A stretch of 64,000 bases of DNA from Octopus vulgaris. Taxonomy: Eukaryota. How positions within the stretch are numbered: the stretch's first letter is position 1; every line of letters begins with the position of its first letter. The position numbers and the translations under genes were made by a program. Positions 43,142-60,835 of the stretch are shown here, piece by piece. Below the pieces are notes generated by a model. That model did no database searches. It saw only the letters and a list, made by a program, of their open reading frames with translations, and was not told where the DNA came from. Where the stretch lies: assembly GCA_951406725.2 (NCBI GenBank), contig OX597822.1:105214001-105278000 (forward strand), given 5' to 3'.

Positions 43142-43256
43142 CGCCATAATTGACCGCTAGCTCCAAGAGCTTTTTTAATTCTCTCTCTCTCTCTTTAGTT
43201 CTTTCCTGTTGAAGAGCGTAGGTTGGAAACGTAGAAGATTTTCTCACTATCCCGAG
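43142..43256 (+). mobile_element. Hammerhead-motif short repeat, copy 1 (3'-truncated)
   Basis: Starts CGCCATAATTGACCGCTAG; contains CTGTTGAAGAGCGTAGGTTGGAAACGTA. Confidence 0.65.
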
Positions 43257-43260
43257 ATAG

Positions 43261-43553
43261 ATTAAATTTCCCCGTGCCTCGGAAAACCTAATCTATGCCA
43301 TTACCTGCAGTATATTGGTCAATCAGGAATATCACTCCGTCGAAGAACCACTCTCCACATAGAACAAATCCGCCACCCACAATACAGACACATGCTGGTC
43401 AGTGAAGACATAGAAAGGTGTGCTAGGAATCTTAATCCTAATTTCCTAACTTTCCCTTTTATCAATGTTCACAATACCTCAGCACAACAAAGAATGAATA
43501 AAGAGGCAACTTTCATCAATAAATATCTTCCACAACTCAATATGAACAGATAA
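43261..43553 (+). pseudogene. Penelope-like element GIY-YIG endonuclease relic
   Basis: ENLIYAITC (frameshift) QYIGQSGISLRRRTTLHIEQI...KEATFINKYLPQLN*, showing the LIY/YIG, R, E and N motifs. Confidence 0.85.
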
Positions 43554-43729
43554 CATAAGAACATAATAACCCCTCAATTAATACCACTAACCCCCATACA
43601 TCCCATAAACTATTCACATTACAGCATTATATCTACCCTAATTGCACCAAATCCAGAACTACTTACCTCCTTTACACATAATCTTTTTACTCAGGGACTA
43701 GTAGACCCGACACCGTTTGGTAATCGGTG

Positions 43730-43773
43730 AGCATTGAAAGGCAGTGAACAGTAATTCACGAAACCGGTATGCT
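43730..43773 (+). ncRNA. Atypical minimal hammerhead-like motif in the Penelope 3' region
   Basis: AGCA-TTGAAAGGCA-GTGAA(cagtaa)TTCAC-GAAA-CCGG-TA-TGCT. Confidence 0.5.
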
Positions 43774-56722: not shown

Positions 56723-57512
56723 TATCTATATATATAAACACACACATGTGTGTATATATGTGTGTGGTTATGTGTGATCGTTTGAGACTACGTTAAGTTT
56801 TTATCTTCGCAGACTTCAAGCCGACTACTAACAACATAATAGAGCCAAAGCAATTGCTGGTATTTGTGAATATTTGAATGATTTAAGTATGTCCATATAT
56901 TTAGATGCATATATGAATACATTTTCACTCAAGTACGCGTTGGCATGTCATAAACAGTTATATATGATTCATTATATCTTATGAACCTGTGTGAATACGA
57001 TATGCACATGCAATCTTCTGCATTCCTTTATTGTAGAAAACAAAGATGGACGCTGCCTGGAATGTTTCCAAATTTTCACCGTTATAATAATCAATAGTAT
57101 TCGGTGCATGCATGTTCTTCTACTTTGTTCTTTCTGGTATGACCCCAGTATTTTATGCTAATCTGTTGCTGCATGCCTCAGTGCACTTATTCGAATAGGT
57201 ACAAATGAAAATCCATATTCTGGATACAAAGACAGTACGTTTCTCATTCATTCATGTGTGCAAGTATTTGTATAGGTATATATATATATATATATATATA
57301 TATATATATATATATATATATATATATATAGTACAGTGTACATTTAAACACATAAGGAATCCACTCGTTGGATTCAACATGCTAGAAAGACAGCTAGGTT
57401 CTATAACCACAAAGTTAGGGATAAAATTCGACAGGAACGAAATGGAAAAATAAAAAAAATTTACCATCTAGTTTCCTGGACCAATTGGTTACTGATTTCA
57501 GTTTATCAAATA

Positions 57513-57568
57513 AATAATATTCGCTAGGTGAAATCTTTTTCAACAGATATCACCTAGCGAATATTATT
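57513..57568. repeat. 24-bp-arm hairpin
   Basis: AATAATATTCGCTAGGTGAAATCT / AGATATCACCTAGCGAATATTATT. Confidence 0.85.
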
Positions 57569-60216
57569 AACTATTTTATGAGTAATACGTAGGCTTTTGA
57601 CTAAACTTTTACACGCTAGGCCACTGGGAGTCAAAATTTTTATTAACTTCCATTTCCATTCGATCTGATTAAGTATATATATATATATATATATATGATT
57701 GTAATTATACACGTATGCTTGTATGTCTGCATAATATGTGGGTATGTACGTTAGTATGTATTTTTACCAGGTATATTTGTGTGTGATTGCACACAATACA
57801 CATGTATATATATATATATATATATATATATATATATATATATATACATACATATATATATATATATATATATATATATATATATATATATATATATATA
57901 TATATATACATATATACATATATATATATATGTATGTATGTATTTATATATGAGTGTTTGTATATAATGTATACATGCATAAAGGCAAGGAAAAGATACT
58001 GCGAAGTTTCCGGCCAAGAGTTTCTCTCAAAAGGCATTCCACAAAATATATGTATTTATATGTATATTATATGTATGTATATGTTATATATATAATATAT
58101 TATATATATAATAAATATGTTTATATTATCTAAGCCAATGGTAGAAGACATTTGCTTAATCTGGTATCGAACGCAAAACAGTTAGATACAAAGCAATCAT
58201 CTTAATCACATGGATAAACCTGTGTGAAGATTCTTCAGTGCCTTTACCTTTAAGTCCGGTTTTACCCACTCATACACACCACATCACACATAAACACATA
58301 TCTGTTTGTGTCTTTATATTTATATATATATATATATATATATATATATATATACATATACAAACACCTGTATATATATATATATATATATATATATATA
58401 TATATATATTTATATATATTTATATATATATATATATATATATATATACATGTATATATATGTATATATATATGTATATATATATGTATGTATATGTATA
58501 TATATATATATATATATATATATATATATATAATATGTTTATATATATACATATATATATATATATATATGTATGTATGTATATATGTGTGTGCAATTAT
58601 ATAGTAGTTTATTCATGCATTTAGAAAAATGTGCATGCATATTTCTATACGTCAGTGTTCTCACCTCGGATATCCAATTTACGCTGCAAGTATCCTAATG
58701 TTTTTGTTCTTGTCTTCAACATGGATTAGAGTTTTAATACTTTCCGAAACATAAATTGATTGTTTTTCATTTTGAATTTGATTTATTTTGCATTTATGTT
58801 GTCGTCAGGAAAAATCCTATTTTGAAAATATTAAGGTTTTTGTTTCTGTATTTTGTTTTCAATTCATTATACACATTGAAATAAACTGCTTCTTAACACA
58901 TAAAACATAAGAAGACAAAAGTGGGTCCTGACAGTTACAGCAAATCTTTTAAAAGCTAATATGTCTTACTTCTTTTTAAACACTTCCTTATTCTTGCAAC
59001 AACCCCGGTTTCAAAGTAATCATGTCTTTGCATAAAACCGAGATAATTGTATCATTCCTTGTACATCAGCCAAGTCGATTGTTGATCGTAAAGAAATTGT
59101 AGAGCTTCGTTCTTCCTAAGAGGAAGGCAATCCAAATGATGCTATCTGCTCGACATAAGGATATTACTATACTTAAAAGGTTAAGTAGTTCTATATGACA
59201 GAAGAGACATGACGATTTCAATAGGTTTAATGAATATTAAATTATATATATATACATACATACATATATATATATATATATATATAGATATATATATATA
59301 TATATATATATATATATATATATATGTATATATATGTGTGTGTATGTGTTTTTTTTATTTTCTGGTTTGTTTATCCTACGTGAAGGTGAATCCCTTAGCA
59401 AATAGTGTGAATATATTCCTATTAGCGCATATAATAGTGCTAATATCAAGTGGCAAGTTTAAGCTATTTGTTTTTTAATTACTATATTTAATTCTAGTGA
59501 AGATGCCTGTCAAATTCTTTTGAATAACTGACATAAATGTTTACTGTTATCTAGTTGCTCCGTGTTCAAATCCAACCGTGGGTGGCTTTGCTTTTCGTTA
59601 TTAAAGGGGCGAAAAAAAAACGACGAGCTGTAAGAATCATTAGCACGCCGAGAAAAAGGTTTAGTGGTCCTTCGCCCATCGCTACATTGAGTTCAAATTC
59701 CGCCGATGTTAACTTTGCCTTTCATAATTTCGGGATCGATTAACTAAGTACCAGTGAAACTCTGGGGTCGATGCAATCGACTTGTATCCCACCACAAAAA
59801 TTTCAAGCCTTGTGCTTTTAGTAGAAAGGATTAATAATGGGTCGAAAAAATAAATACCAATGACCATAGATTTTTCTATTGCTGTAAATATATTTAGTCA
59901 TTCACCATATTTGTAGTAGTACAAGTATATAAAATAAAGCCTTTGTGCAGAACGAATTGTAACAGGACGATTCGAAAGAGAGCTAGCCAGAGGTGGAGGC
60001 TATGTTGAAGCAATCTATTGATGGTAAAGTCTCCAGTTATAAACACTTCTAGAGGAAAAAAGGCACACGATTACTTAATATTCGTTCTTCAAAATTTCTG
60101 AGAGTATTGTTAATTACTTCCCTATTTGTTCCCTAAGTAGGAATTTTTATCTAAATCCGAATAACAACGACCAAAACTATTTAACGTATTATATATTCCG
60201 AAAATGTTCACATCAT

Positions 60217-60835
60217 AGTCGCAGATGTCGCTGTGTGGTAAGAAGCCTGCTGCCCAACAACATAGTTCCGGGTTCAGTCTCACTGCGTGGCACATTGGGC
60301 AAGTATCTTCTGTAATAGCCTCGTGCCGAGCAAAGCCTTATGAGTGGATTTAAGACGTAAACTGAAGGAAACCTCTCGTATGTATATATATATATATATA
60401 TATATATATATATATATATATATATATATATATACAGTCGCCATGATTGACCGCTAAATCTACAAGTTTTCTCTTCTCTCTCTGTTTGTTTCCTCATGTT
60501 CCTTTCTGATGAAGAGCGTAGGCTCTAAATGTAAAAGACTTTCTCACCTTTCCTAGCGTCAAACAATACATCTGCTTGTTGTTCAAACACCTGTCTTCGT
60601 CTTTTGTTTTTCTGCGTGTGTGTTTGTGTGTGTTTGCCCCTCCTAACACCTCGTGACAACCGGTCTTCGTGTATTTACATCCCTGTAGTCTAGTGGTTCG
60701 GCCAAAGAGACAATAGAATATGTACACGGCTTTCAAAAATAAGTTCTCAGATCGATTTGTTCCACTTAAAACCTTTCAATGTGTTGCTCCAGCATGGTCG
60801 CAGTCAGATGACTGAAACAAGTAAAGGATAAAAGA
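60217..60835 (+). mobile_element. SINE-A copy hosting a hammerhead-motif repeat in its internal (TA)n
   Basis: Head at 60217-60380; body resumes after about 60612. Confidence 0.75.
60439..60611 (+). mobile_element. Hammerhead-motif short repeat, copy 4
   Basis: CGCCATGATTGACCGCTA start; CTTT-CTGATGA-AGAGCGTAGGCTC-TAAATGTA-AAAG. Confidence 0.65.

Follow-up and report, generated by a model that had tools for sequence, protein, structure and literature searches.

The DNA analysed here is a 64,000-nucleotide stretch of the Octopus vulgaris genome (assembly GCA_951406725.2, contig OX597822.1, positions 105,214,001 to 105,278,000 of the forward strand), referred to below as the window, with coordinates counted from its first letter. 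It has a composition of 35% G+C, contains many short interspersed elements (SINEs) and microsatellites, and carries four copies of a non-coding repeat of about 210 bases that is built around a minimal type-I hammerhead ribozyme motif. The copies, labelled A, B, C and D, start with CGCCAT at 43142, 45519, 47697 and 60439, all lie on the + strand and are homologous, aligning from CGCCAT onward, as the initial annotation of this DNA had described. Searches with nhmmer from C or D recover each of the other copies (E 2e-22 to 4e-7), and the BLAST and nhmmer links among the four span E 4e-40 to 4e-7. That all four share a strand is no evidence, as by hand calculation this would arise by chance 1 time in 8. 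A profile of the four copies found no fifth copy in the window (next match E 2.8), and no tandem copies of the element occur there.

Copy C (47697-47909) is full length and the best preserved, and abuts (TA)21 at 47910-47951. Copy B (45519-45749, with its 3′ end uncertain between 45733 and 45749) is also full length, with a decayed core and TA tracts on either side. Copy D (60439-60611) lacks the last 20 or so nucleotides and is preceded by (TA)28. Copy A (43142-43260) consists of the 5′ part with a decayed hammerhead; its 3′ half is missing, and near 43255-43264 it is joined to the relic of an endonuclease gene. Identity over aligned columns is 158/188 for B and C, 142/169 for B and D, and 145/164 for C and D. 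Nine diagnostic sites over 121 ungapped columns set A and D apart from B and C, so there are at least two subfamilies. Similarity may begin about 4 nt upstream of CGCCAT, and CAG is common to A and D. No host exon was seen in the 140 of 277 filtered open reading frames (ORFs) that were scanned against Pfam.

That copy D lies inside a SINE, at its (TA)n/(TG)n centre, as proposed earlier, is confirmed by three other copies of that SINE that align in the window. The interrupted SINE occupies 60215-60835 (+), with its 5′ half at 60215-60434 and its 3′ half at about 60612-60835, and since copy D splits it at the internal microsatellite, D arrived after the SINE. One end of each of copies B, C and D lies no more than 30 bp from a TA tract; with the ends chosen by eye, six settings of a binomial test gave P 0.006-0.05. 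The claimed association with TA tracts therefore stands for three of the four copies, but it is modest because the window holds 70-117 such tracts. No target-site duplication was found at the copies, and only a 6-nt word was noted at copy C.

In copy C the hammerhead motif lies at 47772-47809 (+), with a predicted cut after 47804. Helix I is formed by 47772-76 with 47805-09; the core at 47777-83 is followed by an extra A at 47784, helix II at 47785-96, GAAA at 47797-800 and a palindromic ACGT at 47800-03, whose stem is two bases long. A base between positions 9 and 10.1, a palindromic 15.2-16.2 without loop 3, and an NUH site (GTA ending at 47804) are all present, and helices I and II appear in the minimum free energy (MFE) fold. 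Core position 6 is U (U6, 47780) and is followed by the N7 position at 47781. Copy C is the sole copy of the four with the whole motif, so that the shared hammerhead of the initial annotation holds as a consensus and is complete in 1/4 copies. The other three have disabling changes: copy A (core start 43206, U6 at 43209, cut-site equivalent after 43233) has a G.G mismatch at 10.1-11.1 and has lost the closing pair of helix II (43225); in copy B (core start 45611, with U6, A7 and C8) position 8 is C and helix I is broken; and in copy D (core start 60506) T replaces G12 (60526) and C15.2 (60530). Position 6 is U in A, B and C, 3/4 copies, and A in D. Across the four copies 86% of the helix cells are paired, the anatomy tested including the G10.1-C11.1 pair.

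This U6 hammerhead escapes both Rfam and descriptors that require A6 (CUGANGA). The strict pattern CTGANGAN..GAAAC matches none of the four copies, and exact-pattern scans of metagenome contigs and viral contigs gave no match. At gathering score Rfam has 0 matches in the window, and by E-value only microsatellite-driven microRNA (miRNA) matches were seen among 150 of the 275 matches listed. The Rfam hammerhead search that had been suggested as a check came out negative, no hammerhead model being reported on copy C or the copy A region.

The wider family was followed in four sequencing runs aligned to 47520-47908 at 80% likeness, with differences of at least 8% listed: X7, a DNA run of organism B; X4 and X15, which are presumed, as a guess, to be RNA runs of organism A; and X21, a raw DNA run. 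Among the runs listed as carrying the sequence none is on record as RNA, and family sequence in X4 and X15 is therefore no claim of expression. Contigs carrying family sequence number 16,451 in X7, 1,243 in X4 and 322 in X15, so that what had been taken for a four-copy family is in fact abundant. The summed depth in X7 does not exceed 128 upstream of 47689 and rises to about 1.0 million at 47702-14, which places a sharp 5′ edge at CGCCAT; it peaks over the motif at 8.7 million, falls to about 3 million over the 3′ part and continues to 47908, where the aligned stretch stops. The 3′ end of the element runs into (TA)n. The peak over the motif is due to A/D-type contigs with flanks clipped at 47773 and 47812. 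Divided by the median depth of eight pieces (48), the X7 depth gives 65,000-180,000, a figure inflated by overlapping short contigs that is no copy number, so that we infer only many thousands of copies.

U6 (47780) accounts for more than 92% of the depth in X7, X4 and X15, and thus under two organism codes, with other letters below 8%; the suggestion that U6 is a family-level variant is therefore upheld. A/D-type flanks occur among the contigs spanning the motif, yet 47780 shows no variant of at least 8%. Within 47773-47810 only 47781 (N7) is listed as variable (A 23-44%, C 20-26%, otherwise U). The helices are nearly invariant among the family contigs, and no helix II variant reaches 8%. N7 is variable in hammerheads generally, as it is in this family, and position 6 is normally a fixed A. 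In the three contig runs no joint of a 3′ end to a 5′ start was found among the joints listed, which leaves the tandem organisation implied by the earlier term "retrozyme-like" without support; nor was a circular joint listed in the presumed-RNA contigs of X4 and X15, although contigs cannot reveal ends. The part upstream of the motif (47702-47727) has a depth relative to the 3′ part (47819-47857) of 0.13 in X4 and 0.07 in X15, against 0.43 in X7; this scarcity in the presumed-RNA runs could have either a subfamily mix or cleavage as its cause. Near the 3′ end, at 47866-47890, three X7 contigs step back by about 20 nt, which suggests that in some copies the terminal segment has been duplicated locally.

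Several observations bear on what U6 would do to the ribozyme. In another hammerhead that was mutated comprehensively, activity was low, without rescue, for every single or double substitution within the CUGA turn other than the C-G swap (PMC9901934), and a natural A6C variant from a phage cleaved at less than 0.1 per minute (Perreault et al. 2011, PMC3088659). When 43 nt of copy C are folded, U6 is predicted to pair with A15.1 as part of a stem that shuts the core, and the probability of this stem is 0.98 with U7, 0.59 with A7, 0.41 with C7 and 0.00 with A6. Folding energies place the active dimer 5.7 kcal/mol above two monomers with U6, versus 0.9 kcal/mol with A6. The U6 hammerhead is predicted from these data to self-cleave weakly or not at all. 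The earlier description of the element as "ribozyme-processed" is left unsupported by a core predicted to be impaired, and the genomic copies span the cut site intact. We consider it rather improbable that U6 is instead the functional form, maintained by selection across tens of thousands of family members, in which the monomer would be locked by the U6 pairing and opened only by a protein of a Penelope-like element (PLE) or by dimer formation.

A link to PLEs is suggested by the sequence that follows copy A. The GIY-YIG endonuclease relic at 43264-43553 (+), reported there in the initial annotation, is supported by a match to Pfam PF01541 (E 4e-4, below the cut-off) and by 244 relatives in a full HMMER search, the best with 54% identity; word-index protein searches with the relic gave no match. 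It is spread over two frames, with NLIYAITC in one and YIGQ..stop in another, and a short deletion lies between them near 43305. In 11/11 relatives longer than 600 amino acids among the best 150, the GIY-YIG match is C-terminal with a CX2-5CxxC linker ahead of it, and three of the four long relatives scanned have a Pfam reverse transcriptase (RT) match. CCHH residues are visible in the top matches; the relic itself is without the linker region, one C and one H. The named relatives of its best full-length match are from bivalves. The relic probably belongs to the RT-endonuclease PLEs that have a C-terminal endonuclease and a Neptune-type linker, the clade being assigned from motifs rather than from a tree. 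The CX2-5CxxC linker is the Neptune type and has been proposed to drive microsatellite targeting (PMC8557442). No RT match was found in the window. A reading of the relic as Naiad, with an N-terminal endonuclease after the hammerhead, was ruled out by the C-terminal match in all 11 long relatives.

A second, unrelated and degenerate minimal hammerhead-like motif, which the initial annotation had omitted, lies at 43730-43773 (+), some 180 nt past the endonuclease stop. It has a core TTGAAAG at 43734, a 5-bp helix II, a palindromic ACCGGT and a cut-site equivalent after 43769, and helices I and II are present in its MFE fold (z −0.8). Its core may be of a U3-A8 kind, and its palindromic helix III has six bases. 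Past the stop the sequence does not resemble copy A, the best match being 8-13 nt long with E about 1, and no second copy follows the relic. Because the relic has a different motif of its own and nothing downstream resembles copy A, it can be read as the 3′ end of a PLE in its own right, with copy A apparently joined to its 5′ break. Copy A is likely to be a chimera and not, as had been proposed, the long terminal repeat (LTR) of the adjoining element. A (TA)n tract at 43978-43998, with no strand assigned, is likely to mark the 3′ end of the composite of copy A and endonuclease. The junction is a weak sign of shared machinery, and since there is only one, a template jump and a fusing deletion cannot be told apart.

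The anatomy of the motif agrees with the published PLE consensus except at position 6, and in this respect the initial assignment to the PLE type is sustained. Like the minimal hammerheads of metazoan PLEs (Cervera and de la Peña 2014, PMC4209133), it is of type I with a short helix I and no loop 3, and those motifs likewise have a U-rich 5′ flank, AU-rich flanks, mostly single dispersed copies and low expected activity. The extra base between 9 and 10.1, the G10.1-C11.1 pair and the palindromic 15.2-16.2 are also shared, and these emerged outside the authors' descriptor. The window element differs in U6 (A6 is present in 44/44 of the Fig. S3 motifs examined, but the descriptor required A6), in a helix II of 4 bp, at the short end, and in its fixed 5′ edge; the part of the supplement examined has no cephalopod row. 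The Neptune and Hydra clades (Craig et al. 2021, PMC8557442) share an insertion bias towards microsatellites or (TA)n and a hammerhead shortly before the 3′ end, and the relatives of the relic share the Neptune-type linker and CCHH residues; unlike these PLEs, the window element has no ORF. Hydra PLEs that target (TA)n carry the hammerhead at a similarly short distance from the 3′ end. Hydra hammerheads differ in a helix III of 3-4 bp and in A6 (34/34 rows of File S2, but that search required A6), and three short motifs of the element found no match in the Naiad/Chlamys/Hydra supplement. A Hydra partner was disfavoured on the other helix III type and on the lack of a motif match in that supplement.

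Further parallels come from non-autonomous and natural variant systems. Animal non-LTR retrozymes (PMC7229834; Li et al. 2026, 10.64898/2026.07.22.740005) are likewise non-coding units of 200-400 nt with a type I hammerhead, a relation to PLEs and dispersed monomers. They are defined, however, by tandem arrays and circular RNA, neither of which was seen for the window element, whose core also deviates. The natural core variants of PMC3088659 include one in which position 6 varies, with low but detectable activity, although this is a single phage example with C and not a family-wide U in an animal repeat. PLE-linked dispersed minimal hammerheads are known and common, and PLE-derived non-autonomous units are also known; further sources on what is known and what is new are PMC6765202, PMC7761336, PMC11014351, PMC6962438 and PMC8967140. 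Neither this family nor a family-wide U6 is described in the literature searched, which lay outside Repbase, Dfam, Lünse et al. 2017 and Arkhipova et al. 2017, and an "A6U" variant of the hammerhead catalytic core was not found in it either. Because it lacks A6 as its usual state and showed no tandem arrangement, the element is best filed as a variant of PLE-linked hammerhead units and not as a member.

Taken together, we regard the element as an abundant, dispersed, non-coding repeat of about 210 bp with a PLE-type U6 hammerhead, likely a non-autonomous passenger of PLEs that inserts into TA microsatellites with uncut RNA as the template and whose ribozyme is predicted to be weak or silent; we give this reading a probability of roughly 0.58. 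A single cut in the middle of the unit cannot make the unit's ends, and the template is therefore uncut RNA or a circle, of which uncut RNA is favoured because no tandem joint was found and the core is predicted to be impaired. The working model is the Poseidon element of Anolis (Frangieh et al. 2024, PMC11167929), with a nick in AT-rich DNA, an internal start of reverse transcription downstream of the hammerhead, uncut RNA as the main template and protein-assisted cleavage; in vitro, ribozyme mutants of this PLE leave insertion unaffected and ribozyme cleavage needs the protein. Poseidon differs in being an autonomous element of the Poseidon clade, tested in vitro, with an ORF that starts within the ribozyme. 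By analogy, a PLE RT/GIY-YIG protein would bind the RNA and nick AT-rich or (TA)n DNA. Reverse transcription would then start about 105 nt downstream of the cut site, cross the uncleaved motif and reach the fixed CGCCAT end, which may be set by read-through or, as a guess, by an internal PLE-type promoter. The motif would be kept as a folded element, for protein docking or slow protein-assisted cleavage, and not as an end-making step. Copy A may have arisen when the RT jumped from a Neptune-type PLE RNA to the short RNA; alternatively, two adjacent insertions may have been fused afterwards by a deletion. The partner protein and promoter of the passenger, as well as its cleavage, are putative.

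A number of points weigh against this interpretation. An autonomous element sharing the ends of the repeat was not found, either through an RT in the window or by a match in the portion of the Naiad/Chlamys/Hydra supplement searched, and the TA association rests on 4 copies. Contig depth does not equal copy number, and short contigs and intervening (TA)n could conceal tandem masters. In X21 (1,934 million letters) there were 16 reads, all less than 90% alike and none on the motif or unique flank; this run carries the same species label as the best holder of the sequence, and its result does not fit a high copy number. The conservation of the motif is only suggestive, since the 38-nt window was chosen after the table had been seen: in X7, 1/38 positions are variable in the motif versus 17/174 in the flanks, or 2/39 in the motif if 47772, of the outer helix I pair, is included, and subfamily-diagnostic sites in the copies of the window number 1/38 in the motif versus 8/83 outside it. 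For the compensatory changes that had been put forward as a check, a two-sided change is present in 1/9 pairs over 4 copies and 127/500 shuffles are as high, so that there is no covariation beyond shuffles.

The strongest alternative, which we nevertheless hold to be unlikely, is that the copies are monomers of a non-LTR retrozyme. Tandem masters would be transcribed, dimeric hammerheads would cut at the equivalent of 47804, and circles would form; a PLE protein would copy these into DNA, always starting at one fixed point, so that the monomers would come out permuted, with the ribozyme at their centre. A unit of 200-230 nt with a central motif fits retrozyme monomers, the palindromic helix III permits a dimer, and a core that is fixed apart from a free N7 suggests lasting selection on the fold. 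The two presumed-RNA runs also contain family sequence, with proportionately less from upstream of the motif than in DNA, but this ratio mixes different organism codes and subfamily compositions. The absence of a listed 3′-to-5′ joint from the three contig runs and of a tandem copy from the window argues against such monomers, as does the predicted impairment by U6, and the published coral retrozyme arrays have canonical and not minimal motifs.

Slightly less probable still is the view that no separate non-autonomous family exists and that the copies, whether solo pseudo-LTRs (pLTRs) or short 3′ ends, come from a single autonomous PLE family with a U6 hammerhead in its own pLTR. Most minimal hammerheads in animal genomes are single and dispersed and are thought to derive from truncated PLEs, PLE 3′ ends show the same arrangement of hammerhead, about 100 nt and (TA)n, and copy A runs into the coding sequence of a PLE. 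Truncation should, however, leave a ragged edge, and both subfamilies have the same sharp 5′ edge; among the loose-end groups listed for the contigs (252 more are unlisted), the only one near this edge (47695, 4 contigs) is microsatellite-like. The endonuclease adjoining copy A, moreover, has a different motif and a 3′ region unlike copy A. The idea of an ordinary short repeat, a SINE of another kind that resembles a hammerhead by chance, is very improbable. In its favour, no Rfam hammerhead model scores the element, hairpin stability is unremarkable (z −1.9 for the 43 nt of copy C and +0.6 for the whole copy), one core base is off consensus and covariation is not significant. Against it, a descriptor permitting one core deviation, written after the motifs had been seen, has 2 matches in the window (copy C and 43730-43773) but none in 12 shuffles. 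The PLE consensus is also shared in the base between 9 and 10.1, G10.1-C11.1, the palindromic 15.2-16.2 and the U-rich and AU-rich flanks, N7 is the only variable site, and none of 58 A-box-like matches falls inside any copy, with no tRNA call in the window.

The role of the hammerhead in PLEs is described as unresolved in the literature cited here. A family that has become abundant while carrying a core change expected to cripple cleavage, and in which N7 stayed free, offers a natural test of cutting versus fold in PLE mobilisation. It also exposes a blind spot, as Rfam and A6-requiring descriptors pass over such elements. Should the U6 form prove to be a working ribozyme, protein-gated ribozymes would make up a large class in animal genomes that has gone uncounted, and damping of the cut would be what enabled a short PLE passenger to spread intact, much as a SINE does. 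Should the ribozyme be dead, the annotation would still be useful as that of a PLE-dependent short repeat of non-tRNA origin.

The window contains further repeats and transposon remains. Tandem SINE-like units with periods of 249 and 184 bp lie at 16194-16692 and 19635-20123, and a (TTC)n-type repeat of about 490 bp occupies 20585-21074. A near-perfect 82-bp inverted repeat at 51561-51642 is located in a SINE-like repeat and scores below the gathering score of a miRNA model on both strands. Relics of a Tc1/Tc3-type transposase (55629-56065, +) and of a mariner transposase (62135-62900, −; Pfam Transposase_1 and HTH_48) were also identified.

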